Virus record (IMG/VR): IMGVR_UViG_3300021963_000022
Source: a virus
Taxonomy: Duplodnaviria > Caudoviricetes
Direction: 5' to 3' (one strand)
Length of the DNA stretch: 64,000 nt
Both the position numbers and the translations under genes were made by a program. The notes under the pieces were generated by a model. That model was not told the origin of the DNA. It worked only from the letters and a program-made list of their open reading frames with translations, and ran no database searches. Numbering within the stretch: position 1 is the stretch's first letter; every line of letters begins with the position of its first letter. This document shows, piece by piece, positions 34,709 to 51,088 of the stretch.

Positions 34709-37422
34709 GTTATGTGGATGCAATACACGCAAAAGATGAGGACCGTATCTACGTTGTAGAGAGGGATAATAACGGCAAGCGTCAGTACAAAGAGTATCCC
34801 ACTAACTATGTATTGTATTATCCCGATCACAAAGGTAAGCAACGCAGTATCTATGGCGATCCTGTAACTAGATTTTCAACTAGGAAAAGAACTGAGTTTG
34901 AAAAAGAAAGACGAATTCACGGTAACAAGAAACTCTTTGAGAGTGATGTTAACGTTGTATTCCGCTGTCTTTCAGAAAACTATTTAGGTGTCGATGCTCC
35001 TAAACTTCATACTTGCTTCTTTGACATTGAGGTAGACTTTGATCCTGTCAAAGGATTCAGTCCAACAGCAGACCCATTTAATCCAGTTACAGCTATCAGT
35101 TGTTACTTAGATTGGCTTGACCAATGTATTACATTAGTTATTGCTCCTAAGCATATGACTAGTGAAACAGCCAATGATATTGTAAATCAATTTGAGAATA
35201 CAATGCTTTTCAATTCAGAGAAGGAAATGTTTGATGTTTTCTTTCAACTGATTGAAGATGCTGATGTATTAACTGGCTGGAACTCAGAGGGATATGATAT
35301 TCCCTATATGGTCAATCGTGTTACTAGAGTGATGAGTAAAGATGATACACGCAAATTCTGTTTGCTAGGTCAACTTCCTAAACCTCGTAAGTATGAACGA
35401 TTCGGTAAAGAAGAAACTACATATGATTTAGTAGGTCGTATTCACATGGACTATTTGCAGTTGTATAAGAAATACAACTATGAATCTCGTCACAGTTACA
35501 AACTTGACTCTATCGGTGAGATGGAAGTAGGTGAGAACAAAACTGTATATGAAGGTACTCTTGACCAATTGTATAACAAAGACTTTAAAAAGTTTATTGA
35601 ATACAATAGACAAGATACTATGTTGTTGGTGAAGATTCACAACAAACTTAAGTTTTTAGAATTAGCTAATCAACTTGCACATGAAAACACAGTACTGCTT
35701 CCAACAGTTATGGGTTCGGTAGCAATGATTGAGATGGCTATTTTTAATGAAGCCCATGAACGTGGGGTTGTTGTTCCAGATAAAAAACGAAAGGTTGAAA
35801 ATGCAGAAGATGTCCAACAGGCAGCAGGTGCCTTTGTTGCTACGCCCAAGAAGGGAATGCACGAATGGGTCGGAGCAGTCGATATTAACTCACTCTATCC
35901 CTCGGTTATTCGTGCCCTCAACATGGCAGGCGAAACCATTATTGCTCAAGTCAGACAAACAATAACTGACCAATACATGAGAGACAAAGGATCACGTCTT
36001 GCCAGCGAAAAGAAATATTTCAAAGAAGGTGATGATGCTGTAACTGGTAGTATCTTGTGGGAGAATTTGTTTGGTGCATTAGAGTACACAGCAATTATGA
36101 ACCAAGAACGTGGTACTATGCTTACAGTAGACTATGAAGATGGTCGTTCAGTGGAAATGTCGGCAGCAGAAATCTGGAAAATGATTTTTGATAGTCACAA
36201 TCCCTGGATGTTATCAGCTAATGGTACAATTTTTACTTATGAAAAAGAAGGCATCGTACCTGGTCTACTAACACGTTGGTACACAGAACGTAAAGTAATT
36301 CAAAAACAAGCTAAAGAAGCATATGGTACAGATATGTATGATTATTATGACAAGCGACAACTTGTTCGTAAAATTTTACTTAACTCAGCATATGGTGCAC
36401 TATTGAATGAACATTGCAGATTCTATGACAAGCGTATTGGTCAAAGTGTTACATTGAGTGGTCGTCAGATTGTTAAGCATATGATGAGTATAATCAATGA
36501 AACAGTTGAAGGTGTGTATTCACACGAAGGAGAAGCAATTGTATACGGTGATACTGATTCTTGCTATTTTACTGCGTTTCCTACGCTTAAAAAGCAAATC
36601 GAAAACAAAGAACTAGACTGGAACAAAGAGACTTGTATCGGATTATACGATGGTATCGCTGACCAAGCTAATGAAAGTTTCCCAGCATTTATGGAGAAAG
36701 CATTTCATGCTCCAAGAAAGAATGGAGCAATCATTAAAGCAGGTCGTGAACTAATCGGTGATCGTGCTATCTTTATTACTAAAAAGCGTTATGCTATCAA
36801 TATCTTTGATAAAGAAGGTAAGCGTAAAGATAAAGATGGTCAAGGTGGTGATATCAAAGCAATGGGTCTTGACTTGAAACGTGCGGACACACCTAAGTAT
36901 GTACAAGAATTCTTAATGAATGTATTGTCAATGGTACTACAGCAAGGTAAAGGTCGTGAGGAAGTTATTACAGTAGTTAAAGACTTTAAACGAAATCTAT
37001 CAGCACAAGATAGTTGGACTAAAGGTTCACCCAAAGGTGTTAACAAACTTACGATGTATGGTGAGCTGGAAGCTCACAGTAAAACTGGTAGAGCTAACAT
37101 GCCCGGTCACGTTCGTGCGGCTCTTAACTGGAATTATTTGCGTAGAGTTTACAACGATAACTACAGTCAGAAGATTGTTGATGGCATGAAAATTGTTGTT
37201 TGTAAACTAAAACAGAATCCAATGGGATTTACTAGCGTAGCTTACCCGACGGATGAACTTAGATTACCCAAATGGTTTTGTGAATTACCGTTTGATGATA
37301 ATGCAATGGAACAAACATTAGTTGATGAGAAGATTGACAACTTATTGGGTGTATTAGATTGGGATTTGCGTTCTAATACTGATACAAAATCTACATTTGA
37401 TGAATTATTTACATTTGGTTAA
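34705..37422 (+). CDS. Family B DNA polymerase (T4 gp43-like)
   Basis: Exo motifs FFDIEV, WNSEGYDIPY, YNRQD; Pol motifs DINSLYPS, KILLNSAYG, YGDTDS, KKRY. Confidence 0.97.
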   Translation: MSYVDAIHAKDEDRIYVVERDNNGKRQYKEYPTNYVLYYPDHKGKQRSIYGDPVTRFSTRKRTEFEKERRIHGNKKLFESDVNVVFRCLSENYLGVDAPKLHTCFFDIEVDFDPVKGFSPTADPFNPVTAISCYLDWLDQCITLVIAPKHMTSETANDIVNQFENTMLFNSEKEMFDVFFQLIEDADVLTGWNSEGYDIPYMVNRVTRVMSKDDTRKFCLLGQLPKPRKYERFGKEETTYDLVGRIHMDYLQLYKKYNYESRHSYKLDSIGEMEVGENKTVYEGTLDQLYNKDFKKFIEYNRQDTMLLVKIHNKLKFLELANQLAHENTVLLPTVMGSVAMIEMAIFNEAHERGVVVPDKKRKVENAEDVQQAAGAFVATPKKGMHEWVGAVDINSLYPSVIRALNMAGETIIAQVRQTITDQYMRDKGSRLASEKKYFKEGDDAVTGSILWENLFGALEYTAIMNQERGTMLTVDYEDGRSVEMSAAEIWKMIFDSHNPWMLSANGTIFTYEKEGIVPGLLTRWYTERKVIQKQAKEAYGTDMYDYYDKRQLVRKILLNSAYGALLNEHCRFYDKRIGQSVTLSGRQIVKHMMSIINETVEGVYSHEGEAIVYGDTDSCYFTAFPTLKKQIENKELDWNKETCIGLYDGIADQANESFPAFMEKAFHAPRKNGAIIKAGRELIGDRAIFITKKRYAINIFDKEGKRKDKDGQGGDIKAMGLDLKRADTPKYVQEFLMNVLSMVLQQGKGREEVITVVKDFKRNLSAQDSWTKGSPKGVNKLTMYGELEAHSKTGRANMPGHVRAALNWNYLRRVYNDNYSQKIVDGMKIVVCKLKQNPMGFTSVAYPTDELRLPKWFCELPFDDNAMEQTLVDEKIDNLLGVLDWDLRSNTDTKSTFDELFTFG

Positions 37423-37429
37423 ACTGGTA

Positions 37430-37458
37430 TTGACATTCGTAATAAAACCCATCATAAT
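37430..37458 (+). promoter_or_regulatory. sigma70-type promoter (TTGACA-17-CATAAT)
   Basis: Immediately after the polB stop. Confidence 0.75.
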
Positions 37459-37506
37459 GACACATATTGCTATATTAAATATTAGCACAAATTACAAAGG
37501 AAAAAC

Positions 37507-38241
37507 ATGAAAGATATTTTAAAAGAGTTAGTATTATACACAAAAAAATTAGGTTTCATTAACCTAATCAAAATTACAGGTACAGATAAAGATGTTACTA
37601 TCAATGCTATTGCTGATAACAAAACAGTTATTGTTAATGGTTTGATGAAGCAACCTGTACCGGGCTTTGATGGTGTATTTGGTATGCCTAACTTAGGCAA
37701 ACTTGATACTATCTTAAACTTAGATGTATATGATGAACTAAGTAACATTACAGTACAACCTAAGATTGAAGATGACGGTACTAGTGTTCCCGGTACTATT
37801 CACTTTGAAACAGTAAACAAAGACTTTGTTAACGATTATCGTTTGATGAGTAAGTCAGTTGTATCAGAGCAAATCAAGTCAGTAATTTTCAATGGTACAG
37901 TTTGGAATGTTGAATTCGAACCAACTATTGTAGGTATTCAACGTTTACGCCGTCAGTCTCAAGCTAATAGCGAAGAAGAATCTTTTATGACAAAAACTGA
38001 GAACGGTGATCTAAAGATTTACTTTGGTGATCATAGTACACACTCGGGTAACTTTATTTTTCAACATTCAGTTAATGGAACACTAAATAAAAGTTGGAGG
38101 TGGCCTATTAAAGAATTCTTAGCAATCGTAGATTTACCCGGCGATAAGAAGATTCGTTTTAGTGACCAAGGTGCGTGTGAGATTGTTATCGACAATGGCA
38201 CAAGCGTATATCAATATCTTTTCCCAGCACAAACAAAATGA
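37507..38241 (+). CDS. Probable sliding clamp (processivity factor)
   Basis: 244 aa with a two-domain beta/alpha pattern; directly after polB; clamp loader is in the same window. Confidence 0.6.
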   Translation: MKDILKELVLYTKKLGFINLIKITGTDKDVTINAIADNKTVIVNGLMKQPVPGFDGVFGMPNLGKLDTILNLDVYDELSNITVQPKIEDDGTSVPGTIHFETVNKDFVNDYRLMSKSVVSEQIKSVIFNGTVWNVEFEPTIVGIQRLRRQSQANSEEESFMTKTENGDLKIYFGDHSTHSGNFIFQHSVNGTLNKSWRWPIKEFLAIVDLPGDKKIRFSDQGACEIVIDNGTSVYQYLFPAQTK

Positions 38242-38972
38242 CAATTAAAAGTATTTCAGGCGGAGTGGGTGTAGTAGTTAACGGCGGAACACCCGCATAT
38301 CCCGTCATAGACATGAAAGAAGTTAGCGCCGGTCTAGTTAGATATAATACGGATCACCTAGAAGTTTTTGATGGTACTGCTTGGAAGCCTCTTGGTTGGT
38401 CTGATTGTAACGTTGATTTGTCTAATCCTGCTATGGATTTACTATCCTGGGTACGTGAGAAGATGATTGAAGAACAATCAAAGGATACTACTAGTGTATT
38501 GTCTCCTGAAGCTATTGACTTACTAACATGGGTCAAGGCTAAAAGACATGAAGAAGAAAATGGTGTAAGTTTAATTACACCTGAGATGGAAGAACTGTTT
38601 GCTTGGGTTAGACTTAAGAAACAGGAAGATGATATCTTAGCACGTAAACGTCAGGAAGAAGAAGCGCAGAAAAGAAAACAAGCTGATTTGCGTAGACTTA
38701 TGGAAGAAGAAGCTAGAAAATCAATGTTGATTAAACAGGAAATTAAACCCGTACCTGTTCTATTTCCAGAGCCTGTACAACAGCCTGTACAACCTGTACA
38801 AGAGTTTGAGCCTGAGGTGATTGAAGAAGTAGTATCTGAAGTAGTTGAAGAAGTTATTCCAGAAACAACTACAAAAGCAACACCCAAAACAAAGAAAAAG
38901 AAAAAGATTGAACCAGTAGTGGTTGTAGTTGAGAAACCAAAAGAGATTCCACCAGAAGACAGGATGTGGTAA
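38238..38972 (+). CDS. Hypothetical protein, paralogue of the next gene, with 3 internal helical repeats
   Basis: RYNTDHLEVFDG..W; three L.xxx.DLL.WV(R/K)xKxxEE repeats. Confidence 0.65.
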   Translation: MTIKSISGGVGVVVNGGTPAYPVIDMKEVSAGLVRYNTDHLEVFDGTAWKPLGWSDCNVDLSNPAMDLLSWVREKMIEEQSKDTTSVLSPEAIDLLTWVKAKRHEEENGVSLITPEMEELFAWVRLKKQEDDILARKRQEEEAQKRKQADLRRLMEEEARKSMLIKQEIKPVPVLFPEPVQQPVQPVQEFEPEVIEEVVSEVVEEVIPETTTKATPKTKKKKKIEPVVVVVEKPKEIPPEDRMW

Positions 38973-39340
38973 TGATAAAAAGTATTCAGACTAATGGTCC
39001 GTTCTTAAGTGTAGCAGGTGGCTATCCATCTGCTACATATATCAGTAATGGTAGTGGACCAGGTGTAGGTAATATGCGATATAACCCCAACAGTCAAAAC
39101 ATTGAAGTATTTGATGGCAGTATTTGGGTTATTATGCAATCTAGTAATGCTTATATTAGTTTAGACCATGAAGCAGTTATATTGTTAGAATGGGTACGTA
39201 AGAAGCGTGATGAGGATCTTGAAGTAGAACGATTAGCAGAAACTAATTCAACTATCAAGGACCTTGTAAATCAAGTTAAAGAAAAACAAGAACAAATTCG
39301 TATTGTTCAAGCACTCGTAAAAGAAGAAGTAAAAGTTTAA
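38972..39340 (+). CDS. Conserved phage hypothetical protein
   Basis: MRYNPNSQNIEVFDGSIW...LLEWVRKKRDE. Confidence 0.7.
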   Translation: MIKSIQTNGPFLSVAGGYPSATYISNGSGPGVGNMRYNPNSQNIEVFDGSIWVIMQSSNAYISLDHEAVILLEWVRKKRDEDLEVERLAETNSTIKDLVNQVKEKQEQIRIVQALVKEEVKV

Positions 39341-40896
39341 TGGAACAAGTAAATCTATCAAATCATCACAAAGATGATTGGGCGTTATTCCTACCAGCAG
39401 TCAGTAGCTTCTATATCTCTGGCTTAGGTAAGCAACGTAAAGGTGAAGAGTATTTTGAACAATCTCGTATACCTGCAGGCTTTAACAATGATGTAGAAAA
39501 ACTAAACTTTCTTAATAGCAAAGAAGGTCTCTATTATTATAAATGGGGCTTGTACTCTGCTGGTCATGCTAACTTAGATACTACTAAAGACGATCCTAGT
39601 GAATCAATCATTAGAGAACGTGAAGCTGGTACATTCATGTTGGGCGACTCTGGTGGATTTCAAATTCTTAAAGGTCAATGGCCGGCTGATTGGAAAGATC
39701 CTAACTGTCCTAAAGCTTTAGAAAAACGTCAAATTGTTTTGAAGTGGATGGATACATACATGGACTATGGTATGTGTTTAGATGTACCTAGTCAATCATT
39801 CTTAAACAAACCTGCTATCAAACTTCATGGCATTCATAACATCGAAGAAGCTATTACTGCTACACATATTAATAACGAATACTTTATTAACAATCGTTCG
39901 GGTAAGTGTAAGTTCTTAAATGTATTGCAAGGTACTACACATACTGAAAGTGATTCATGGTACAACGAAATGAAAAAGTATTGTGATCCAAACATCTATC
40001 CAGACAATCACTTTAATGGTTGGGCGTTTGGTGGCCAGAATAAAATTGATGTTGACTTGATGTTACGTAGATTTGTTGATATTGTATATGACGGATTGTT
40101 ACAAGAAGGTAAACATGATTTGGTTCACTGTTTGGGTGTATCAATCTTAGAGTATGCTGTATTGTTTACTGATATTCAAAAAGCTATTCGTAAGTATCAT
40201 AACCCAAGTTTGAAGATTACGTTTGATTGTGCAAGCCCATTCTTTAGTGCGGCCAAAGGACTTGCTTACTTTAATACAAACATTGAACATAATCAGAAGT
40301 GGTCATATCAAATGGAAAAGACTGCTGAGAAGAAGTCTTATGCTACTGATAATCGGACGTTTATTGATGCTGTTTTGGCTGATGGTATCCATAAACAGTT
40401 TACAAATAGTCCAGTAACTGATAAACTACTTATTAGAGATTTGTGTTATAGAGGGATAGGATTCTTAGGACAACATAACAAAGAAACAAAAACTAGCTGG
40501 GATACACTTAGCTATACATTGTTACAAAGTCATAATGTCTATACTCATATCAATGCTGTGCAAGAAGCTAATCGTAGATATGAGCAAGGAATTCATCCAG
40601 CAATGGTTAGAAATAAAAATACAGGTTTAACCTTTGGTCAGTTGATTGATAGTATTTTTGCATGTAAAACTAAACAAGAAAGTTTAGATATCATTACACA
40701 GTATGAACTATTCTGGACGCAAATGCAATCAGGTAGTCAAGGATTTAGTGGTAAGAAAACTATCAATTCACGTACACAATATAAAGAACTTTTTACAGAA
40801 GAAGAATCAGATTCTGAACTATATTTGTTAGAAGATATTAAACCTAACAAATATTCTTCTAATGAAAAGTTTAACGAACTATTTACACTTGAATAA
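39340..40896 (+). CDS. dpdA: tRNA-guanine-transglycosylase-fold protein, probable DNA 7-deazaguanine transglycosylase (DpdA-like)
   Basis: LGDSGGFQ, MCLDVP, NVLQG, GWAFGG, VHCLG; clustered with folE/queD/queE. Confidence 0.8.
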   Translation: MEQVNLSNHHKDDWALFLPAVSSFYISGLGKQRKGEEYFEQSRIPAGFNNDVEKLNFLNSKEGLYYYKWGLYSAGHANLDTTKDDPSESIIREREAGTFMLGDSGGFQILKGQWPADWKDPNCPKALEKRQIVLKWMDTYMDYGMCLDVPSQSFLNKPAIKLHGIHNIEEAITATHINNEYFINNRSGKCKFLNVLQGTTHTESDSWYNEMKKYCDPNIYPDNHFNGWAFGGQNKIDVDLMLRRFVDIVYDGLLQEGKHDLVHCLGVSILEYAVLFTDIQKAIRKYHNPSLKITFDCASPFFSAAKGLAYFNTNIEHNQKWSYQMEKTAEKKSYATDNRTFIDAVLADGIHKQFTNSPVTDKLLIRDLCYRGIGFLGQHNKETKTSWDTLSYTLLQSHNVYTHINAVQEANRRYEQGIHPAMVRNKNTGLTFGQLIDSIFACKTKQESLDIITQYELFWTQMQSGSQGFSGKKTINSRTQYKELFTEEESDSELYLLEDIKPNKYSSNEKFNELFTLE

Positions 40897-40905
40897 GGAG
40901 ATAAC

Positions 40906-41118
40906 ATGCCATATCGTAGTAGAATCAGTATATTAAAAGAATCACATCGTTTGATTGATGAACAGATTATAGTAATGGAAGCTAACAACGCTGATCCGTT
41001 GAAGATTTCAGAAATGAAAAAACAAAGACTAATTTACAAAGACGAGATCCGAAGAATGGAACGTATTCAATGGGAACATGATCATGATACTGTCGACCTC
41101 AGCGATGATGACTATTAA
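40906..41118 (+). CDS. DUF465/YdcH-like coiled-coil protein
   Basis: LKESHRLIDEQI...MKKQRLIYKDEI pattern; AGGAG SD. Confidence 0.6.
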   Translation: MPYRSRISILKESHRLIDEQIIVMEANNADPLKISEMKKQRLIYKDEIRRMERIQWEHDHDTVDLSDDDY

Positions 41119-41311
41119 ATCAACTATGACTGCCGAAACCGAAGAATCTACTATTTCATTTAGAGGTGGTTCTGATGAAATGCTACGTATAGCAAAAGAT
41201 GGGTTTTATGTACGTGGAGTTCGGGTAAATCAGGATGACAAAGAAGCTGAAATAGTGTATAATACATTTCATCAGTGGTTAACATGGGCCTCACTTAACA
41301 GGAAATATTAA
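41078..41311 (+). CDS. Hypothetical protein (start uncertain)
   Basis: ORF fills the operon gap. Confidence 0.5.
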   Translation: MIMILSTSAMMTIKSTMTAETEESTISFRGGSDEMLRIAKDGFYVRGVRVNQDDKEAEIVYNTFHQWLTWASLNRKY

Positions 41312-41763
41312 TGGAACAACATATTCAAGCAATGAATGAAAAACGTGTACGCATTAAGCATTATGCTAAACGTATGATTTTTGTAACATTTCAAAAAGAG
41401 GGTATTCATATGTACCCGGCAGCGGCAACAGATCCAGCACTCGCAACAGGTGATGAATATGATGTTAGCTTTTTAGGAACTCCACATCGTCACATCTTTC
41501 ATTTTAGTGTGGCGATTGAAGTATTTCACAATGACAGGGATATTGAATTCATTCAATTTAAACGCTGGTTAGAAAATCTCTACAAAGGCGGAACACTTGA
41601 ATTGAATTACAAGAGTTGTGAAATGATTAGTGATGACCTCTATGAGCAAATCGCTACTCGCTATCCCGATCGTAACATTGAGATTACTGTCAGTGAAGAC
41701 GGTGAGAACGGTGCAACGATTTATTATAATACAAGCAAACCTTATCAACAACTCGCTATTTAA
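41311..41763 (+). CDS. QueD-like T-fold protein, DpdL-like (predicted CDG decarboxylase)
   Basis: FLGTPHRHIFHF (LxxxHRHxF), DRDIEFIQFK, SCEMIS, VSEDGENGA; a second QueD paralogue next to dpdA. Confidence 0.65.
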   Translation: MEQHIQAMNEKRVRIKHYAKRMIFVTFQKEGIHMYPAAATDPALATGDEYDVSFLGTPHRHIFHFSVAIEVFHNDRDIEFIQFKRWLENLYKGGTLELNYKSCEMISDDLYEQIATRYPDRNIEITVSEDGENGATIYYNTSKPYQQLAI

Positions 41764-41774
41764 AGGAAAATACA

Positions 41775-41981
41775 ATGGCAAAACATACTTTTCAACCTAA
41801 TCCTCGTGTACGTCAAATTTTCGAGGATCTAGAAAAGTACTTGGCATTCTGCCAAGATTATGGCTACAAATATGACGAATCCTCATTATACGATATGCGT
41901 AGTTACGTATATCGTCAACACACTAAACAGTTATCTGGAAAGTGGGCTAAAGATTCATGGGCTGATGCAATCGTCCGATGA
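41775..41981 (+). CDS. Hypothetical protein
   Basis: 68 aa, AAGGA SD. Confidence 0.6.
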   Translation: MAKHTFQPNPRVRQIFEDLEKYLAFCQDYGYKYDESSLYDMRSYVYRQHTKQLSGKWAKDSWADAIVR

Positions 41982-43156
41982 GAAAATTATTCTATATGGG
42001 TCTCGAACCTTACAAAGCACGTTACACTCTACAATTACAAGAGTGGAATGAACGTGTATTTAAACGTAGAGGTATTAACTATGTTATCGTGCCTGGCGAA
42101 ACATTAAGTGATGACCAAGCTATTGTTACAGGTCAAGTACTAGACGCACATGGACGTACATACTTTGGTATGAGTCAACTAATGAATCTAGTACGTATGA
42201 TGAAAGCAGGAGAGTGTAGTGACCAAGATATTATCTATTTTGAAGATATGTTTCAACCAGGTATTGAGAGTTTGCCGTATATACTTAAGCAAGTACCTAC
42301 TAATCTTCGTCCTCGTATATTTGTCCGTTGTCTTGCTCAGTCAATCGATCCGGATGATTTCGTACATGTATGGGGAATGAGTGAATTCATGGGTCTCTAT
42401 GAGAAGATGGTAGATAGTTTTGTTGATGGCGTACTAGCTACTAACGAAGAAATGATTATGCATATGAAGATTGCAGGCTGGAAGTCACCTCTATATAACA
42501 TTAGTGGTCTTGCATTCGGTAAGAATGAGGTGCGTAGTCGTGTATTAGGACCATTGAAACCCTTTGAAGAACGTACTATGCGTGTAGCATTTAGTGCAAG
42601 ATGGGATCAAGAAAAACAACCTGATTTCTATATGGACTTAATTGAAGCGTTTTATTCTAGGTCAAATAAAAAAATTGAATTCTGTGTATTCAGTGGTAGT
42701 AAGTTAAAAAGCAATAACGAAAGTTATATGGAACGTACTCGCAAACTACAGAGCGAGGGTAAACTTGTCATCTATGAAGACTTGGAAAAGAATGATTACT
42801 ATGACCTATTAAACGATACTAGAGTATTGTTTAACTGTGCTTTACAAGACTGGGTAAGTAATACAGTTAGCGAAGCAGACACATTAGGTTGTAATGTATT
42901 ATATCCGGCATATCGTAGTTTCCCGGAAACGTTTGCTAATGATAATACACGACTGTATGTTCCTTGGAGTATTGATGATGCTATGTCTAAATTGCAAAAT
43001 TTGTTAATGGCACCGCACAATTTTCAAGGTCGTATTAGTGATTATACTGATAAAACTATTGACCGTATCTGTGATATCATGGAAGGCAATGGAGAACAAT
43101 ATTTACGCATGGGTAGTGACTATCGTAAATACACAAGAGAAACAAAATACTCATAA
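41978..43156 (+). CDS. GT-B fold glycosyltransferase (GT4-like)
   Basis: FSARWDQEKQPDF, VLFNCALQDWVSNTVSEA..LGCNVLYP...SFPE. Confidence 0.75.
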   Translation: MRKLFYMGLEPYKARYTLQLQEWNERVFKRRGINYVIVPGETLSDDQAIVTGQVLDAHGRTYFGMSQLMNLVRMMKAGECSDQDIIYFEDMFQPGIESLPYILKQVPTNLRPRIFVRCLAQSIDPDDFVHVWGMSEFMGLYEKMVDSFVDGVLATNEEMIMHMKIAGWKSPLYNISGLAFGKNEVRSRVLGPLKPFEERTMRVAFSARWDQEKQPDFYMDLIEAFYSRSNKKIEFCVFSGSKLKSNNESYMERTRKLQSEGKLVIYEDLEKNDYYDLLNDTRVLFNCALQDWVSNTVSEADTLGCNVLYPAYRSFPETFANDNTRLYVPWSIDDAMSKLQNLLMAPHNFQGRISDYTDKTIDRICDIMEGNGEQYLRMGSDYRKYTRETKYS

Positions 43157-43171
43157 CATAAAGGAAATAAC

Positions 43172-43366: not shown

Positions 43367-43368
43367 TC

Positions 43369-43599: not shown

Positions 43600-43630
43600 T
43601 AAATACTTGTGTTACACAACGGTAACACAA
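43598..43630 (+). promoter_or_regulatory. Late-like promoter GATAAATA followed by a perfect 9-bp hairpin in the folE leader
   Basis: TTGTGTTAC-ACAACG-GTAACACAA at 43607-43630. Confidence 0.5.
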
Positions 43631-43665
43631 TGTCAAAACAAAACCATCACAAAGGAAGGTTATCT

Positions 43666-44352
43666 ATGAGTTATAATAAAACAAAAACAGATCCAGAGTT
43701 GGGTCAAAAAGTTCATCTACATCTATTAAATATGGGCGTAGAAACGCCAATTGACGATACAATTGATTTAGGTGATCGTAAGGATCGTATTGAAAAGATT
43801 GAAGGTCATTTCAAAGCTATTATGGAAACAATGGGTCTAGACCTAGATGATGATAGTCTTATTGAAACACCTAAACGTGTTGCCAAGATGTATGTAAATG
43901 AAATCTTTTGGGGACTTGATTATGAGGCATTCCCTAAATGTACAACAGTTAACAACAAGATGCAATACAACGAAATGGTTGTAGAGCGTAATGTTAATGT
44001 TCAATCTAACTGCGAACATCACTTTGTAGTGATTGATGGATTGGCTACTGTAGCTTATGTCCCTAAACAAAAAGTATTAGGGCTTAGTAAGATCAACCGT
44101 ATTGTAGAATATTTTAGCAAAAGGCCTCAAATACAAGAGAGGTTAACAGAGCAGATATTTCACACCTTACAGTTCATCCTTGAGACAGAAGATGTTGCAG
44201 TTATGATTGATGCACAACATTATTGTGTAAAATCACGTGGGGTAGAAGATACAGGTAGTAGTACTGTTACTTGTCGCCTAGGTGGAGGCTTTAAAACTGA
44301 TCCAGCGGCAAGACAAGAGTTCTTACAGATTGCTAATAAAGGTTGCAAATGA
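43666..44352 (+). CDS. folE: GTP cyclohydrolase I
   Basis: [49 protein letters not shown]; AAGGAAGG SD before ATG 43666. Confidence 0.95.
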
Positions 44353-44540
44353 AATTTAAATTAGGTGATATGGTTAAAAAAGTGTCTGGTTCAGAATGGC
44401 ACGGTAAAGTAGTGGGTACATATTCAACTGAGTTAACGCCTGAAGGATATGCAGTTGAGAGTCATACAGAAAAAGGGTCTGTGCAAATATACCCCGCTAA
44501 GGCTCTTGAACTTTGGGAGATTAATAATGGGAATGCGTAA
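44349..44540 (+). CDS. dfrB: R67/DfrB-type (type II) dihydrofolate reductase homologue
   Basis: [47 protein letters not shown] matches R67 DHFR, including [10 protein letters not shown] and the VQIY active-site motif; ATGA overlap with folE. Confidence 0.85.
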
Positions 44541-44763
44541 ACAAATGGACTACAATAGTGTGCATCATCAAATCTATATGAGTGGTGTAGAACTTCATAG
44601 TAATTACAATGATGGATACAACCAGTTTGAAATCAAAAAAGATTTACATCGTATTAAATGGTTACTTGATGAGATTATGGCTGACGCACCTACATTTACA
44701 GGTGAAGATGAATTCTTAAAAGAACACGAACAAACCAAGATGTGGAGAACACTTTCAAAATGA
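44527..44763 (+). CDS. Hypothetical protein
   Basis: ATG 44527 within ORF 44449..44763. Confidence 0.55.
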
Positions 44764-45233
44764 TTTTTAATCACATTAAAGAACTAAAAGCACAAGGTAA
44801 AAAGATTGGCATTACTTTCAGTACATTTGATTTGCTTCACGCAGGTCACGTTGCTATGTTAAGTGAGGCGAAGAATCATTGCGATTATTTAATTTGTGGC
44901 TTGCAAACTGATCCAACCATTGATCGTCCTGATACAAAGAATAAACCCATTCAAAGTATTGTAGAACGACAGATCCAACTTGCGGCTTGTCGCTATGTTG
45001 ATGAGGTAGTTGTATATCAAACTGAACAGGACCTTATTGACCTACTACTTATTCTTCCCTTAGATGTTCGCATTTTGGGTGTAGAATATGCTGAAAAAGA
45101 GTTTACCGGAAGATATGAAGGTGGGGAACGAGGTATTGAACTTGTATTCAATGGTCGTGACCATAGTTTCAGTAGTTCAAGTTTAAGAAAACGGGTAGCT
45201 GATGCCCAGATTATTAACACTCTTAATAAATAA
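44760..45233 (+). CDS. Cytidylyltransferase (TagD / glycerol-3-phosphate CTase-like)
   Basis: GITFSTFDLLHAGH, GLQTD, RILGVEY, HSFSSSSLR. Confidence 0.85.
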   Translation: MIFNHIKELKAQGKKIGITFSTFDLLHAGHVAMLSEAKNHCDYLICGLQTDPTIDRPDTKNKPIQSIVERQIQLAACRYVDEVVVYQTEQDLIDLLLILPLDVRILGVEYAEKEFTGRYEGGERGIELVFNGRDHSFSSSSLRKRVADAQIINTLNK

Positions 45234-45300
45234 CTATAGCGGTCTTTGGACATCATCCCGCTTTACAAATTCTGCTGCCTATGCTATAATACAACATAGG
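45225..45300 (+). promoter_or_regulatory. Composite queD control region: late motif, hairpin, sigma70 promoter and SD-sequestering hairpin
   Basis: AATAAATA 45225-45232; AGCGG/CCGCT stem; TTTACA-17-TATAAT at 45262-45290; CCTATG/CATAGG stem overlapping AGGAG. Confidence 0.55.
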
Positions 45301-45308
45301 AGAAATTC

Positions 45309-45791
45309 ATGGCAAACAAAAAATTCTTTTCAACAAAAACATACAGACAAATAGGTCCTGTCGCTTATCGTCAATGGCGTGCTGACAGTCATTGTAACTT
45401 AATTCATGGCTACGCTATGAGTTTTCACTTTGAGTTTGAAGCTGATACACTAGATGCCCGCAACTGGGTAACTGACTTCGGTGGACTACGACCTCTCAAA
45501 GACAAACTAGAAGAATGGTTTGACCATACTCTACTAGTCGCACAAGATGACCCAATGCGTGAACATCTATTAGAACTAGGTCGATTGAAGCTAGCAAAGA
45601 TTACAGAAGTAGAACGTACTGGCTGTGAAGGTATTGCTGACTTCTTATACGAATATGTTAATACAATCTTTTTACCTAACTGCGGTAGTGAAGAAGCAAA
45701 GCGTGTATGGTGCTGTAGAGTAGAGGTTCGTGAGACTGATAGCAATATGGCAGGTAGAGGTGGTCATAGAGAAGATGGGGAGTTTGCATAA
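45309..45791 (+). CDS. queD: 6-carboxy-5,6,7,8-tetrahydropterin synthase
   Basis: HCNLIHGY, WVTDFG, FDHTLL, GCEGIA, VEVRET. Confidence 0.88.
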   Translation: MANKKFFSTKTYRQIGPVAYRQWRADSHCNLIHGYAMSFHFEFEADTLDARNWVTDFGGLRPLKDKLEEWFDHTLLVAQDDPMREHLLELGRLKLAKITEVERTGCEGIADFLYEYVNTIFLPNCGSEEAKRVWCCRVEVRETDSNMAGRGGHREDGEFA

Positions 45792-46222
45792 TGTTTAGTG
45801 TAATTAAATTCTTTTGGTTAGTGAGTCGTTCATCCTGGAACATCATGAACCCCAATCTAAATCCGTTGCGACATGCACCTGTATATATCAAATATTTTCT
45901 TAGCATCCTACTGGGGTGTTTTTGGAGCCTAGCATTTGGAATCTACATTGGTGAACTGTTAACAATTGGCTACAATATGCTAGGTCACATTGCCATCATC
46001 AGCATGGTATTTGCTACTTGGGCTGTATTTCGTTCAGTAGAAAATACTTATGGTCCACGTGGTGGTACAGTAGATTGGTTACGCATGCCAGACTATAGTA
46101 GTCGGTGTGATGAACTTACTGAAGATCAGCGTTTTGCTAAAATCCAAGAATGGAACAATCGGAATGTTTGGAACGAACCTAAACATTCTGAAAAAGATAA
46201 AGAAACTTATTACGGAGCATAA
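45791..46222 (+). CDS. Membrane protein of unknown function
   Basis: Two hydrophobic segments after MNPNLNPLRH. Confidence 0.6.
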   Translation: MFSVIKFFWLVSRSSWNIMNPNLNPLRHAPVYIKYFLSILLGCFWSLAFGIYIGELLTIGYNMLGHIAIISMVFATWAVFRSVENTYGPRGGTVDWLRMPDYSSRCDELTEDQRFAKIQEWNNRNVWNEPKHSEKDKETYYGA

Positions 46223-46224
46223 AC

Positions 46225-46326
46225 GTGACCATTAATGAAATTATTGCTATAGTACTAATGGTAGCCGTAGTGGGCATAGTGCTATGGGATATGAACAGGA
46301 ACAAAGAAAATAAACCAAAGGAATAA
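46225..46326 (+). CDS. Small single-TM peptide (33 aa, not in track)
   Basis: GTG start with GGAG SD; VTINEIIAIVLMVAVVGIVLWDMNRNKENKPKE. Confidence 0.45.
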   Translation: MTINEIIAIVLMVAVVGIVLWDMNRNKENKPKE

Positions 46327-46361
46327 AGAATTCTACGCAGAGAATTTTAAAAGGAAAATAA

Positions 46362-47012
46362 ATGTTAGAAACAATTTGCGATACATTAGTTGAAGCATAT
46401 AGACGCAACTGGATTACTAGTCGTGATGGCAATGTAAGTATTCGTCATCACGACCGTGATCACTTTTACATCACTCCTAGTGGTGTCCGTAAGCAGACAA
46501 TGCAACCTGATCAGTTTAAAAAGATTGGCATTGAACAAGGCTACTATGACCAACCTCCTAAACCATACTATTCTTGGAAAGAACTGGCATATACAGACAT
46601 TAGTGAGAAGCTAAAACCTAGCGGAGAAATACCACTGCACTTCGGCTTACAACGAGAAATGGGGCAACACAGTGATGATGTAAGAGTTGTAGTTCATTTA
46701 CACCCTACTTATTGTATTGCGGCAATGCACGCCGGTATTGATTTAAGCACTATTAGCAAAGCGTTTCCAGAATTGAATCGCTACACTAAGGTAGCACCCA
46801 ATGTAGGAGACGTGCCTCCGATTAGTCAAGAGCTTGCAGACCAGTGCCATAAGATGTTACAATTAGACAATAAAGGCAATATTGTTTACGACATTGTAGG
46901 TATCAAAGGACACGGAGTTGTTGCTATAGATACAAGTCCATGGCGTGCTTTTGAACACATTGAACGATTAGAACATATTTGTCAAATCGTATTAGCATCA
47001 AATAAATTTTAA
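46362..47012 (+). CDS. Class II aldolase/adducin family protein
   Basis: DGNVSIR, YITPSG, KPSGEIPLH, VHLHPTY, GIKGHGVV. Confidence 0.88.
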   Translation: MLETICDTLVEAYRRNWITSRDGNVSIRHHDRDHFYITPSGVRKQTMQPDQFKKIGIEQGYYDQPPKPYYSWKELAYTDISEKLKPSGEIPLHFGLQREMGQHSDDVRVVVHLHPTYCIAAMHAGIDLSTISKAFPELNRYTKVAPNVGDVPPISQELADQCHKMLQLDNKGNIVYDIVGIKGHGVVAIDTSPWRAFEHIERLEHICQIVLASNKF

Positions 47013-47022
47013 GGAGAAAACT

Positions 47023-47712
47023 ATGTTTGAAACAACTTATGAAAATGGAACGTCATATCGTTCCGCAAGCGAAATCAATTCAGCAATGGGTCGTGTCTAT
47101 GGACATATGAGTCTTGCTGTTATTGTATCAATGTTTGTTAGTTACTTTGTAGGCACTAGTCCAGAGTTATTGGCATTCTTTTTTACAGGCTGGATTAAAT
47201 GGATTGTAATATTATCACCACTTGCGGCTATCTTTGGTGTTGCTATGGTACTAGCCAATAACCCAAGTAAAAGTGTAGCACAACTATGCTTACATGGTTT
47301 TGCGGCATTAATGGGATTGAGCTTTGCTACAATCTTTGCTGTATTCACTATGGGTAGTATTGTGTCAGCGTTTATGGGAGCCTCGATACTTTTTGGTGTA
47401 ATGAGTGGATATGGCTACTTTACCAAACAGAGTTTAGACAATGTTGGTAAGTTTATGTTTGTCGGCCTAATTGCTATCATTATTGCTAGTATTGTTAATA
47501 TCTTTATTGGTAGTACAGTTATGCAAATGGTTATCAGTGCATTAGCTATTATTATCTTTTTAGGACTAACTGCTTATGACACACAAAAGATCCGTGAAGA
47601 ACTTAGTATGGAAACTAGTGATAGTGCAGAAGTGCGAGGTGCATTAACATTATATATGGACTTCATTAACTTGTTTATTAACCTATTACAACTGTTTGGT
47701 GATAGAAAATAA
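47023..47712 (+). CDS. Bax inhibitor-1/YccA family membrane protein
   Basis: Seven TM segments; LTAYDTQKI; ALTLYMDFINLFINLLQLFG. Confidence 0.9.
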   Translation: MFETTYENGTSYRSASEINSAMGRVYGHMSLAVIVSMFVSYFVGTSPELLAFFFTGWIKWIVILSPLAAIFGVAMVLANNPSKSVAQLCLHGFAALMGLSFATIFAVFTMGSIVSAFMGASILFGVMSGYGYFTKQSLDNVGKFMFVGLIAIIIASIVNIFIGSTVMQMVISALAIIIFLGLTAYDTQKIREELSMETSDSAEVRGALTLYMDFINLFINLLQLFGDRK

Positions 47713-47722
47713 TTAACAAAAC

Positions 47723-47914
47723 ATGAACAGTTTGGAAAAAATCTGGTCTAGAGCAACAGGTCATCTAATGGGTAATACTGATGATGACCGACCCGATGTA
47801 CCTATTCTTACATTACGGGAAGCAAAAATTGCATTGTTCCTAAAGACTTTCTGGGTGGTACTACATGTGATAACATGTTGTTTTATTATAGCAAATACTT
47901 TACATCATTGGTAA
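47723..47914 (+). CDS. Small membrane protein
   Basis: 63 aa with a C-terminal hydrophobic helix. Confidence 0.55.
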   Translation: MNSLEKIWSRATGHLMGNTDDDRPDVPILTLREAKIALFLKTFWVVLHVITCCFIIANTLHHW

Positions 47915-47917
47915 TAT

Positions 47918-48124
47918 ATGAACAAAAAAATCAAAGAACTAGCAGAACAATGCGGTTTTAGACCAGGTGATAGCATATACGATAGAAATCAATCATTTGA
48001 TATTGAGAAGTTTGCAGAACTTCTAATCAGAGATTGTGCAAAGCAAGTTAATCACATTTACAAACAAGGTGGCGGCACATGGGGTGAAGTCATTCTTAAA
48101 ACTTACAATATAAAAATCAAATGA
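47918..48124 (+). CDS. Small phage protein of the 'IKELAEQ...EKFAELI' family
   Basis: Paralogous to 49546 and 61384. Confidence 0.6.
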   Translation: MNKKIKELAEQCGFRPGDSIYDRNQSFDIEKFAELLIRDCAKQVNHIYKQGGGTWGEVILKTYNIKIK

Positions 48125-48969
48125 GTCATTTAAAAGTAGCAGAATTATTTTATAGCATTCAAGGTGAAGGTAGATACATGGGTGTACCTTCAGTATTTCT
48201 CAGAACATTTGGCTGTAACTTCAAGTGTGCTGGATTTGGTATGCCTAAAGGTGAACTAAGTCGTGAGGTAGAAGACATTGCCGCACGTTCACATTACTAT
48301 GATGATTATAAGAAACTTCCTTTAGTTTCTACAGGTTGTGACAGTTATGCAAGTTGGGATCCTAGATTTAAACATCTTAGTCCTGTACTAACAACAGATA
48401 GTATTGTAGATAGCATTATGGATATGATTCCGCACAAACGTTGGATGGATGAGCATCTTGTTATTACAGGCGGTGAACCTTTATTAGGTTGGCAACGTGC
48501 TTATCCTGACTTGCTTTCACATGAAAAGATGAGGAGTCTTAAAGAGATTACATTTGAAACAAATGGTACTCAAGAACTAAGCCAAGACTTTTCAATATAT
48601 CTACAACAGTGGAAGATAAACAGAGAAAAAAATGCACTTACCTTTAGTGTAAGTCCTAAACTAAGCATCAGTGGTGAGAAGTGGGAAGAAGCTATTCGCC
48701 CTGAGATTATTCATCAATATGAAAGTGTTGGCTTTGTTTATCTCAAGTTTGTTATTGCTACTAAAGAGGATGCACTTGAAGCTGATGACGCAGTAAAAGA
48801 GTTTCGTAGTAGAGGATTCAGAGGTCCTGTATACTTTATGCCATGCGGTGGTGTAGAGTCTGTGTACAACTTGAATGCAAAGAATGTAGCAATTGAAGCA
48901 ATGAATCGTGGTTATCGTTACAGTGATAGACTACAAGTACCTTTATTTAAGAATGAGTGGGGTACATGA
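48121..48969 (+). CDS. queE: 7-carboxy-7-deazaguanine synthase (radical SAM)
   Basis: VAELFYSIQGEG, VFLRTFGCN, GCDS, VITGGEPLL, FETNGT, SVSPKL, RLQV. Confidence 0.9.
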   Translation: MSHLKVAELFYSIQGEGRYMGVPSVFLRTFGCNFKCAGFGMPKGELSREVEDIAARSHYYDDYKKLPLVSTGCDSYASWDPRFKHLSPVLTTDSIVDSIMDMIPHKRWMDEHLVITGGEPLLGWQRAYPDLLSHEKMRSLKEITFETNGTQELSQDFSIYLQQWKINREKNALTFSVSPKLSISGEKWEEAIRPEIIHQYESVGFVYLKFVIATKEDALEADDAVKEFRSRGFRGPVYFMPCGGVESVYNLNAKNVAIEAMNRGYRYSDRLQVPLFKNEWGT

Positions 48970-49151
48970 TGGCACAAATAGTAATTACAAGAACACAGTT
49001 TGAAAAACTGAAAGAAGTATTTGAGATGTATGATCTTGATAGAGTGATTTGGACAGAAGATTCAACTAATGGTATAGGTTCAACTACTACCATTGAGTTT
49101 GATCCTAAATCTACTGTTAAGATGGATATTACTGATTTAGAAAGTTGGTAA
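48966..49151 (+). CDS. Hypothetical protein
   Basis: Overlapping stop/start in the operon. Confidence 0.55.
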   Translation: MMAQIVITRTQFEKLKEVFEMYDLDRVIWTEDSTNGIGSTTTIEFDPKSTVKMDITDLESW

Positions 49152-49375
49152 TGCCATTAGATCAAGTTCAATCATATGACTATTTCTATGAAAAAATAAT
49201 AGGTACTGAACTTAAGTTTGCTTGGTTACCACAAACTTGTGATATATCGGGTAAGCGTATTTGGTTTAAATGGGGCTATCGCATTACTAGAATTATTACA
49301 GGTCCGGGCGAATCTATCTTTGAATATAGATGGCATGAAAAGAATACCCATATTATATGGAAGCTAACGAGGTAA
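49151..49375 (+). CDS. Hypothetical protein
   Basis: FAWLPQTCDISGKRIW motif. Confidence 0.55.
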   Translation: MPLDQVQSYDYFYEKIIGTELKFAWLPQTCDISGKRIWFKWGYRITRIITGPGESIFEYRWHEKNTHIIWKLTR

Positions 49376-49379
49376 ATAT

Positions 49380-49553
49380 ATGTATGAATTAAGATATCTT
49401 GTCCGAAAAGGTTGGGACGGACTAGAAAAAGTGTTACAATATAGAACACAAATTGAAGTAACTGATTATAGTACAACCACTGATAAAGGTAGTTTTACTA
49501 AAAAACGTGAATGGACTGAATGGAAAGATGTACCGGTAGTAAAAGATGAATGA
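49380..49553 (+). CDS. Small hypothetical protein (57 aa, not in track)
   Basis: MYELRYLVRKGWDGLEKVLQYRT...WTEWKDVPVVKDE; GAGG SD. Confidence 0.6.
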   Translation: MYELRYLVRKGWDGLEKVLQYRTQIEVTDYSTTTDKGSFTKKREWTEWKDVPVVKDE

Positions 49554-49767
49554 TAAACTAAAAGAACTGGTAGCGGAATGCTACAATCCTTATTCAGACT
49601 TTGATTATGAAAAGTTTGCTAATCTAATTATTGAAGATGTACTCAGTATTATGGGTGACCCTAAAAACTATAACAGATGCACATATACTAATTTTGATTT
49701 AAATACCGCTTTGTGTATATCAACAGAACTATCTGATAAAATTAAAAAACTTTATGAGAACGTATGA
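49546..49767 (+). CDS. Small phage protein of the 'LKELV...EKFANLI' family
   Basis: Paralogous to 47918. Confidence 0.55.
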   Translation: MNDKLKELVAECYNPYSDFDYEKFANLIIEDVLSIMGDPKNYNRCTYTNFDLNTALCISTELSDKIKKLYENV

Positions 49768-51088
49768 TAAACGTATTGGCTTCTTAGTAAGCTATCAAAC
49801 ACTTATCCCGCACGGGGGTATAGGTCAATTTGCTAAAAGCTTTTGTGAATTGATGGATAAGCACAATATCAAAGTTGATATCATTACTGATAAAGAACCC
49901 AAAGATAATGAGTTTGTCAAATCACTTAAAGCAAACATAATTGCTCCCACTGATTCACTATCATATACTACTCATAGTAATATCTTTATGTACGGTGATA
50001 CATTTTGCTATGAAAGAATGGCTAACTTTCGTAATAGTATCATTAAAGCATTAGAGCATAACTTGTATGATGCATTTGTATGCAACACCTACGAAACTGT
50101 ACAAGTAGCAAGCACTATGGGACTTGAAGATTGTATTCAAATCATTGCTTATACACACTTAGAAAGTCAAATCTTTAACGATACTAAAAATCCTTTTTTA
50201 AACAATACCAATGTGATGATGCGTCAACAATTAAGCACAACAAACATTGATATAGGAACTCAAAGTAAATTTAATCAAGTACACTTAGATGAATCATCCT
50301 ATCATCTTCCTATACCTATTACTGAGCGTGGATTGCTTGAAGAACATCACAAACAACGTGAAGGTATACTATTTGTCGGTCGTTGGGAAGAAGGTAAAAA
50401 TCCTGAGTTGTTCTTAGACTTGATTGAACAAACAAAGTTGCCTGCAAAAGTAATGACTAGTGCAAACGGTGCAAAGAAGTTTGAAGATAGACTAAAGAAG
50501 ATCGGTGTACCATATGAAATCAAAGTGGGCATCATCGGTAAAGAGAAAGTTGACTTTATGACAAGTGCTAGAATTTCATTCAACCCTAGCATTGTTGAGA
50601 GTTATGGTATGGCATTCTACGAACAACATATTCAAATGCCTACATTAGTATTAGAGAATCAGCGTTGGACTAATAACTTTAATAAAGATTTCTTTTACAC
50701 TTGCACTAGGAAAGATATGGCAAGTAAAGCAAAAGAGTTGTATGATATTTTTGAAAAAGCAGAAAGATGGTATAACTTAGGATCATTGAAACACGCACAA
50801 GAACAAGAAGCTACAGTCTTTCACAAATGGAATACATGCTTTAATGATTTTGAGCCTAAACAATCCAACAGCAATACTGCTAAAATTTTACAAAATGAAA
50901 CCATTAAGTATAATGATTTTATTGAAGGATTGGGACGTAGTATAATTTGTATTGATGACTGCCGTTCTGCATTGACTAATAAACATAAGTTTCGTACAAT
51001 CTATACAGATGAAGATACTTACTTAACAAAGGATCCTAGCTTTGAACCAGTTGAAGAAACAAGTCAATCGCTATTTACATTCGCATGA
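49754..51088 (+). CDS. GT-B fold glycosyltransferase (GT4-like)
   Basis: PHGGIGQF, ILFVGRWEEGKNPE, FNPSIVESYGMAFYE. Confidence 0.8.
   Translation: MRTYDKRIGFLVSYQTLIPHGGIGQFAKSFCELMDKHNIKVDIITDKEPKDNEFVKSLKANIIAPTDSLSYTTHSNIFMYGDTFCYERMANFRNSIIKALEHNLYDAFVCNTYETVQVASTMGLEDCIQIIAYTHLESQIFNDTKNPFLNNTNVMMRQQLSTTNIDIGTQSKFNQVHLDESSYHLPIPITERGLLEEHHKQREGILFVGRWEEGKNPELFLDLIEQTKLPAKVMTSANGAKKFEDRLKKIGVPYEIKVGIIGKEKVDFMTSARISFNPSIVESYGMAFYEQHIQMPTLVLENQRWTNNFNKDFFYTCTRKDMASKAKELYDIFEKAERWYNLGSLKHAQEQEATVFHKWNTCFNDFEPKQSNSNTAKILQNETIKYNDFIEGLGRSIICIDDCRSALTNKHKFRTIYTDEDTYLTKDPSFEPVEETSQSLFTFA

Follow-up and report, generated by a model that had tools for sequence, protein, structure and literature searches.

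The window analysed here is a stretch of 64,000 nucleotides from a virus of the Caudoviricetes (IMG/VR record IMGVR_UViG_3300021963_000022). Three proteins predicted in this window end in a common short peptide, LFT[FL]x: a family-B DNA polymerase (PolB), a putative DNA-guanine transglycosylase of the DpdA type and a glycosyltransferase. We read this peptide as a clamp-docking motif because the polymerase is a homologue of gp43 of phages T4 and RB69 with a similar tail in the same place, and because the gene for a PCNA-fold sliding clamp sits between the polymerase and the transglycosylase genes. By the homology to gp43 and by analogy, the peptide would thus bind the clamp. For the set of polymerase, transglycosylase and glycosyltransferase as a whole, we estimate the probability of such clamp tethering at roughly 0.6; of the two modifying enzymes, we are more confident of the transglycosylase. 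The coordinates of the features are listed in Table 1.

A common tail peptide on three proteins of the window

Tails were counted among the 84 gene-like open reading frames (ORFs) of the window, which comprise 20,550 amino acids (aa), and the chance expectation was obtained by composition-preserving resampling of the C-termini in 5000 trials. The motif LFT[FL] occurs exactly three times in these ORFs, always at position -5 from the C-terminus, and the carriers of the strict pattern LFT[F/L]x-COOH are exactly the polymerase, the transglycosylase and the glycosyltransferase. The resampling predicted 0.003 proteins with the strict pattern, and none of the 5000 trials reached the three observed. 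For the looser pattern LF.[FLWIVM].{0,2}$ the expectation was 0.27 (P = 0.003). The peptide common to the three proteins is non-random and not a product of chance. A preliminary description of this DNA had given the same tail sequences and coordinates for PolB, the 518-aa transglycosylase and the 444-aa glycosyltransferase. Its statement that other ORFs lack such an end is correct for the strict and the looser pattern but fails for the loosest one, [LMF]F.{1,4}$, which adds three ORFs of the window: a Bax-inhibitor-like membrane protein (47023-47712) ending ..LQLFGDRK, ORF 58684-59883 ending ..KKELFK and, on the minus strand, ORF 51905-53419 ending ..FFTQFFPGR. The match of the Bax-inhibitor-like protein is probably irrelevant. 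The preliminary description had also named LFT(F/L) as the peptide itself; the three tails are indeed non-random, but the conserved core is wider, namely [FY]-x-x-[LF]-F in the polymerase and the transglycosylase and x-L-F-x-[FWG] in the glycosyltransferase.

The polymerase matched the Pfam families DNA_pol_B (1e-40) and DNA_pol_B_exo1 (1e-22) as well as phrog_262 (5e-196), and its C-terminal third aligned with RB69 gp43 (903 aa) at 1.8e-19. Judged by sequence, it is a homologue of T4/RB69 gp43 over its full length. In the RB69 record, gp43 ends in KKASLFDMFDF and gp55 in SLDFLYEDDN, and the peptide of the window polymerase occupies the place of the gp43 tail. Two structures of the RB69 clamp, 1B77 and 1B8H, are available; the latter, reportedly described by Shamoo and Steitz in 1999, is the clamp with the polymerase peptide.

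The product of 37507-38241 gave a confident AlphaFold2 (AF2) model with a predicted local distance difference test score (pLDDT) of 90 and a predicted template modelling score (pTM) of 0.87. In a Foldseek search of the PDB, the top 50 matches were all PCNA over the full length (E ~1e-10, template modelling (TM) score ~0.66, probability 1.00), and a dip in pLDDT at residues 121-130 fits the interdomain connector loop, which in clamps of this class (about 230-260 aa) joins two topologically similar beta-alpha-beta-beta-beta domains. The nearest structures were eukaryotic PCNAs. A Pfam scan of the protein returned no match, and the BLASTP comparison with gp45 (E 0.017) was not significant. According to the model, the protein has the fold of a PCNA/gp45-type sliding clamp, as had been proposed, and would accordingly form a trimer. 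A complex prediction for the clamp trimer with transglycosylase residues 468-518 scored 0.29 against a mark of 0.32; it had no controls and was counted neither way.

The AF2 model of the transglycosylase had a pLDDT of 90 overall, with residues 1-467 above 90 and the tail, residues 468-518, below 50. All of the top 50 Foldseek matches were tRNA-guanine transglycosylases (TGTs) from bacteria, archaea and human (E ~3e-7). Alignment with the TGT of T. maritima by VIA-align yielded a Z-score of 19.4 and a root-mean-square deviation of 4.5 over 308 aligned residues, and the scores against archaeosine TGT and human QTRT1 were about equal, in keeping with the (beta/alpha)8-barrel fold of TGTs. Across 55 homologues of 25-42% identity there is little or no variation in the GDSGGFQ signature (D103-S104-G105-G106) and at D148, H263 and D296. 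TGTs have one catalytic Asp in this signature and a second one besides, and D103, D148 and D296 would be the candidates for these residues in the window enzyme. Sequence searches with the protein found nothing in Pfam (including PF01702), in PHROGs or in the PDB by phmmer; likewise, a profile of the 55-sequence family had no match in the PDB, and a Pfam scan of all 55 homologues gave none. Because the sequence models gave no match, the class assignment rests on fold, motif and context. The TGT fold, the GDSGGFQ signature and the neighbouring deazaguanine genes, all in line with the DpdA-like TGT proposed earlier, therefore lead us to read the protein as a divergent DNA-guanine transglycosylase of the DpdA type, with DNA as its putative substrate. 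The family profile matched gp042 of phage phiST, which belongs to the DpdA3 subfamily (CGPG_00065 type), weakly (hhalign, probability 56%, 81 columns), and tblastn with the transglycosylase matched no Cellulophaga or Campylobacter phage.

The disordered tail of the transglycosylase is 51 residues long, and in the model two short helices, 480-485 and 507-516, coincide with the two copies of the motif. Such a disordered tail with a short helix per motif is typical of a docking peptide. In most orthologues (L006-L080) the LF motif is followed by an acidic box, EEIEDSD[DE]AMxxxL[GL]E, which often forms the end of the protein. The box may itself serve for docking, with a different partner.

The glycosyltransferase scored 4.8e-5 with Pfam Glycos_transf_1 (PF00534), at 23.4 bits below the cut-off of 26.4. 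Many orthologues at 83-91% identity have a precomputed PF00534 match, and its feature neighbours in the atlas (0.97-0.99) all belong to GT4 families. On these grounds the protein is probably a GT4/GT-B glycosyltransferase, and the earlier GT-B assignment was supported in spite of the sub-threshold score of the protein itself.

Conservation of the tails and of the gene order

Related loci were 80 IMG/VR loci with orthologues at 73-79% identity, and distant homologues of the transglycosylase (25-45% identity) were drawn from a search of 1.8 billion representatives. Of 81 orthologous ORFs for the polymerase, 78 end in STF[DN]xLF[STV]FG. In the glycosyltransferase, LF occurs near the end in 16/16 loci and in 119/120 database orthologues (135/136 together), at a fixed distance from the C-terminus and behind a variable acidic linker, while the flanking residues vary (GLSLFEGL, ESLFSW, EELFQW, ASLFSFE). 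At least one F/Y-x-x-L-F copy is present in all 78 transglycosylase orthologues. The expectation that the tails would be conserved in orthologues thus held for all three proteins.

The transglycosylase orthologues share the segment SGSQGxSGKKTxNxxT[KM]F[DNE]xLF, to which copy 1 of the window protein aligns. Fifteen of them end right at this conserved motif, as in TKFNELFTFE. In three orthologues (L001, L030 and L040) the internal site has decayed to LHF, DHF or KNF, and each of these has a new terminal LF copy; in another orthologue the segment is duplicated and the second motif copy is intact. The regain of terminal copies where the internal site had decayed therefore indicates that selection acts on the presence of the peptide and not on its precise position. 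A second, terminal copy also occurs in the transglycosylases of L054/L067. From these alignments, the internal copy of the window transglycosylase is ancestral and the terminal copy a lineage-specific addition. Even at 25-45% identity, homologues often still end in xFxxLFxx or have xFxxLF with an acidic tail.

The clamp gene lies directly downstream of PolB in the window, in 76 related loci, in the Pseudomonas jumbo phage PA5oct and in a third lineage, L092/L093, and at least three divergent lineages share the order polymerase-clamp-transglycosylase. In PA5oct, the polymerase is split by a homing endonuclease and ends in HFDSLFGW. Its clamp homologue, EST35_0314 (MK797984 221902-222648, 32% identity), is annotated as 'structural protein', and the transglycosylase, EST35_0316 (MK797984 222985-224607, 34% identity), which has SFNSLFDVDAT and an acidic tail, as 'hypothetical protein'. 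Judging by these similarities, PA5oct appears to have a sliding clamp and a DpdA-like enzyme that have so far gone unannotated. The transglycosylase gene of PA5oct is followed by genes for a second glycosyltransferase, a DpdL-like protein and QueE. L092/L093 encode a polymerase ending ..QLFDSLFG, a clamp of 251 aa and a transglycosylase with ..SVFDAMFETNDDD. In L090, the C-terminus of a clamp is encoded directly upstream of a transglycosylase ending in TLDSMFDY. A DNA-level search of cultured phages gave short polymerase matches only.

A distant relative of the transglycosylase (28% identity) was found in the Sinorhizobium phage Phosso (PV764938 323216-324865) and ends ..KIVEGLF-COOH. Its gene is flanked by one for a 'virion structural protein' of 240 aa on one side and by the primase and DnaB genes on the other, with a DnaE-like gene also beside it. 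This 'virion structural protein' might likewise be a clamp that has escaped annotation.

Within the 80 loci, only a few families have the C-terminal pattern, namely the polymerase, the glycosyltransferase, the transglycosylase, a subgroup of QueD, the Bax-inhibitor-like protein and a protein of 140 aa. In the complete genome of PA5oct (492 ORFs), the polymerase is the only protein with [FYH]xxLF among its last ten residues.

The small protein of 138-140 aa is encoded downstream of the transglycosylase (L020:7490-7912, L021:15283-15705, L023:12242-12664 and L053:14701-15117), ends ..F[FH]NSLF[TE][IF]A and had no match in Pfam or PHROGs; going by its polymerase-type tail, it could be a further clamp client. 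Another protein, of 278-279 aa, is encoded directly downstream of the transglycosylase in L006 (6156-6995), L007, L008, L009, L036 and L047; it has a weak DUF6071 match and ends ..EQDNFFD or ..ERTGFFK. In PA5oct, two ORFs just upstream of the primase gene have comparable ends. EST35_0217 (MK797984 142245-142748) ends ..DIAELFK, and EST35_0220 (MK797984 143938-144540), a protein of 200 aa that matches phrog_11778 ('DNA polymerase'), ends EQEPDPFKLFS. The C-terminus of the latter, ..EEEAEQEPDPFKLFS, consists of an acidic linker and then the LF tail.

Alternative readings of the tails

Several observations weigh against the docking of all three enzymes on the phage clamp. The motif lies inside the protein, 20-25 residues before the end and ahead of the acidic box EEIEDSDDAMxxxLGE, in 57 of the 78 orthologues of the transglycosylase; this counts against docking because T4-type peptides are strictly terminal. 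Internal PCNA-interacting-peptide (PIP) boxes, on the other hand, are common in eukaryotes. The tail of the glycosyltransferase is without the upstream F/Y of the polymerase motif and is the weakest of the three for that reason, as far as the sequences tell. No clamp loader, an AAA+ assembly for clamps of this type, was identified among the scanned ORFs of the window. QueD, an enzyme of the deazaguanine pathway that acts on small molecules, ends ..HREWNEDLF[AVD] in 8 of 27 orthologues, while the window QueD ends ..HREDGEFA; either the precursor pathway is also recruited or the LF tail has a meaning wider than clamp docking. Finally, a rare FF variant in the polymerase of four loci, which fall into two lineages (L071 and L076/77/80), is accompanied by FF in the transglycosylase in all four, a point in favour of docking; another four loci, however, combine a transglycosylase with FF and a polymerase with LF, so that the co-variation is imperfect and comprises two events. 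The two FF lineages share seven rare clamp columns (window positions 4, 44, 117, 130, 201, 223 and 224) against a null mean of 2.1, within the top 2.6% of comparable pairs; this comparison was post hoc, is possibly phylogenetic and was not counted as evidence. The preliminary interpretation is partly supported. It stands in the identities of clamp, transglycosylase and glycosyltransferase and in the conservation of the tails; its motif definition does not, and in the transglycosylase the conserved copy is mostly internal, the terminal one being lineage-specific.

A further point against the phage clamp as the partner is that the tails resemble the motif by which bacterial proteins bind the host beta sliding clamp (DnaN), a dimeric ring. 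This motif, a penta- or hexapeptide ending in LF that is often C-terminal, is found on polymerases and repair enzymes; its consensus, QL[SD]LF, was reportedly defined by Dalrymple and colleagues in 2001. The resemblance is seen in glycosyltransferases ending GLSLFEGL or ASLFSFE and in the polymerases of L092 (..QLFDSLFG) and PA5oct (..FDSLFGW), and the Phosso relative ends ..VEGLF beside DnaE-like, primase and DnaB genes. The tails might accordingly dock onto DnaN instead, and the enzymes would still be clamp-tethered. We regard this as unlikely, since most of the tails lack the Q with which the beta motif begins, since the phage has its own PCNA-like clamp, encoded directly between polymerase and transglycosylase in the divergent lineages described above, and since the polymerase is homologous to gp43, whose tail in T4 and RB69 binds the clamp of the phage.

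The LF tails of the QueD orthologues and of the 140-aa protein, neither of them an obvious clamp client, would also fit a different hub of the phage, such as the single-strand-binding protein, the helicase or a scaffold of the modification complex, or a signal for localisation, and the acidic box behind the transglycosylase motif suggests that there are more interactions. Against this improbable alternative, only the polymerase among the tail-bearing proteins has a homologue that has been characterised by experiment, and in gp43 the corresponding position is a clamp tail. Moreover, the clamp gene is a conserved neighbour of the transglycosylase gene, and the alpha-glucosyltransferase of T4 binds the clamp.

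A narrower reading takes only the polymerase and the transglycosylase as clamp clients and lets the glycosyltransferase act on something other than DNA, be it a glycan, protein or small-molecule precursor. Its tail fits only the xLFx[FWG] part of the motif, the acceptors of GT4 enzymes are mostly non-DNA, and the gene lies 9 kb from the clamp, beside that of a nucleotide-sugar epimerase. Conversely, its LF is all but invariant among the orthologues, the architecture of the tail is that of the other two proteins, and the strict LFT[FL]x-COOH is common to exactly these three proteins of the window. We consider this restriction to two clients rather improbable and keep the glycosyltransferase as a candidate for an enzyme that acts on DNA.

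It is very unlikely that the tails are C-terminal signals for degradation or export, or a by-product of composition. C-terminal hydrophobic tags can serve as degrons, and PA5oct-like phages encode ClpX, ClpA, ClpP and ClpS. We rejected this reading because most transglycosylase motifs are internal, and more than 20 acidic residues after the motif do not suit a C-terminal degron; in addition, chance was excluded by the resampling and the homologous tail of gp43 has a known function in clamp binding.

Gene context and comparison with known systems

The genes around the transglycosylase and the glycosyltransferase are listed in Table 1. Genes for a cytidylyltransferase, a class II aldolase, an epimerase and two glycosyltransferases are interleaved with those of the deazaguanine pathway. 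The product of 41311-41763 is called DpdL-like on the basis of PMC10516641. The ORFs that were scanned from 43.6 to 49 kb included no QueC; a DpdL-like gene without QueC suggests that the pathway ends at 7-carboxy-7-deazaguanine (CDG) or 7-deazaguanine and not at preQ0. The Bax-inhibitor-1-family gene sits inside this deazaguanine and sugar cluster, and its PA5oct counterpart is annotated as 'FtsH-interacting integral membrane protein'. Between the clamp and the transglycosylase genes lies an ORF of 244 aa (38238-38972) that is of low complexity and gave a poor model. It was considered as a second clamp and rejected, as it has no similarity to the clamp at 37507-38241 and no homologue in the 80 related loci.

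Table 1. Features of the window discussed in the text, with coordinates, strand and basis or remark.
Feature	Coordinates	Strand	Basis or remark
Family-B DNA polymerase (PolB), 905 aa	34705..37422	+	Pfam, PHROG, RB69 gp43 alignment
PolB C-terminal peptide KSTFDELFTFG	37387..37419	+	putative clamp-docking tail
PCNA-fold sliding clamp, 244 aa	37507..38241	+	AF2 model, Foldseek
TGT-fold, DpdA-like putative DNA-guanine transglycosylase, 518 aa (catalytic domain aa 1-467, disordered tail aa 468-518)	39340..40896	+	fold, motif, context
Transglycosylase motif copy 1, TQYKELFTEE, aa 479-488	40774..40803	+	family-conserved site
Acidic box ESDSELYLLE after motif 1	40804..40833	+	matches EEIEDSD[DE]AMxxxLxE box of orthologues
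Transglycosylase motif copy 2, KFNELFTLE, aa 510-518	40867..40893	+	lineage-specific terminal copy
DpdL-like T-fold protein	41311..41763	+	tblastn: Cellulophaga phage phiST gp040 35% identity, PA5oct 62%
GTP cyclohydrolase I (FolE)	43609..44352	+	Pfam 5e-62
Cytidylyltransferase	44742-45233		
QueD (PTPS)	45309..45791	+	Pfam 1.4e-15
Class II aldolase	46362-47012		
Bax-inhibitor-1-family membrane protein	47023-47712		Pfam 4e-53
QueE-like radical SAM enzyme	48121..48969	+	phrog_2076 1.1e-53
GT4/GT-B glycosyltransferase, 444 aa	49754..51088	+	Pfam below cut-off, PF00534 of orthologues, atlas neighbours
Glycosyltransferase C-terminal peptide SQSLFTFA	51062..51085	+	LF kept in orthologues
Nucleotide-sugar epimerase	51085-51930		next to glycosyltransferase

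According to the mechanism that we propose, the tail peptide would dock in the client-binding pocket of the phage clamp, in the manner of the gp43 tail on gp45. The modifying enzymes could be taken up either by clamps that stay behind on freshly replicated DNA or by a vacant protomer of the trimer to which the polymerase is bound. The docked base-exchange and sugar-transferring enzymes would be held on the nascent duplex, and post-replicative modification would become replication-coupled and processive. A stronger version, in which the clamp is a tool-belt for hypermodification and the DpdA-like enzyme and the glycosyltransferase, in some lineages possibly with QueD, act processively behind the fork to make a glycosylated base of the 7-deazaguanine type, is conceivable, though we hold it doubtful.

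A clamp-docking peptide on the transglycosylase would offer a testable mechanism by which the enzyme is delivered to nascent DNA and slides on it. If the tool-belt existed, it would explain very high replacement by a 'post-replicative' transglycosylase, and it would hold for a large and widespread family of jumbo phages that includes the cultured PA5oct. PA5oct has the same arrangement, and its DNA is suspected to contain modified G, so that the idea is open to bench work now: the pattern of its resistance to restriction enzymes indicates modified G, and the QueD and QueE genes have been remarked upon (PMC12191111). Insertion of a 7-deazaguanine into DNA is what sets DpdA apart from tRNA TGTs, and the behaviour of PA5oct DNA, with the adjacent folE, queD, queE and DpdL-like genes of the window, lends indirect support to such a role of the putative transglycosylase. 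Should the glycosyltransferase be a clamp client, the tail would mark DNA-directed glycosyltransferases among the surface-glycan enzymes of phage genomes. The motif is easily searched and could predict a 'clamp interactome' of uncultured jumbo phages and flag unknown DNA-modifying enzymes.

The closest parallel is that of the gp43, gp55 and gp33 tails of T4 and RB69. In both cases a gp43-type polymerase ends in a short peptide of Ser/Thr, acidic and aromatic residues that recurs on other phage proteins, and a clamp of the trimeric type is encoded nearby. The systems differ in spacing, F-D-E-L-F-T-F here against L-F-D-M-F-D-F there, and in the remaining clients, which are transcription factors in T4 and RB69 and would be DNA-modifying enzymes here, where binding is predicted.

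A second parallel is the alpha-glucosyltransferase of T4, whose interaction with gp45 was reportedly described by Sommer and colleagues in 2004. It is likewise a phage DNA glycosyltransferase that acts after replication, and its physical link to the phage clamp has been shown for T4. There the link was found biochemically, whereas here it is suggested by a polymerase-like peptide conserved across hundreds of orthologues; furthermore, the T4 enzyme is unrelated to the GT4-type enzyme of the window, for which DNA is a presumed substrate. A clamp link of a phage DNA glycosyltransferase is thus already known and less new than the preliminary description implied. The T4 enzyme co-purifies with gp45, and a study from 2026 found that the expression level, not the interaction with gp45, sets the alpha/beta ratio, the share of the interaction being minor (PMC13216743).

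With the phage enzymes DpdA1-4, the window enzyme shares the TGT fold, the DSGGFQ signature and neighbouring folE, queD, queE and DpdL-like genes, and as in the DpdA3 phages phiST and CP220 no queC was seen, here among the tested ORFs. It differs from the DpdA3 of phiST in being about twice as long and in its weak profile match. The disordered tail with a polymerase-like peptide is a feature of the window enzyme that the survey of these enzymes does not mention (PMC10516641). That survey terms all 7-deazaguanine insertions post-replicative, leaves open how DpdA3 reaches complete replacement, and nowhere mentions the word 'clamp' (PMC10516641). In the literature on DpdA or 7-deazaguanine together with clamp or PCNA, we found no paper that proposes a link.

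The proposed arrangement also resembles eukaryotic systems. DNMT1 and UNG2 are PIP-box clients of PCNA that act on nascent DNA, with the motif QxxLxxFF. As proposed here, a DNA-modifying enzyme is brought to new DNA by a short peptide on a clamp of the PCNA fold; motif, chemistry and domain of life differ, and the link is experimental there and predicted here. Taken together, these comparisons suggest that a known principle, in which clamp clients such as T4 alpha-glucosyltransferase, DNMT1 and UNG2 modify nascent DNA, probably extends to 7-deazaguanine base exchange.

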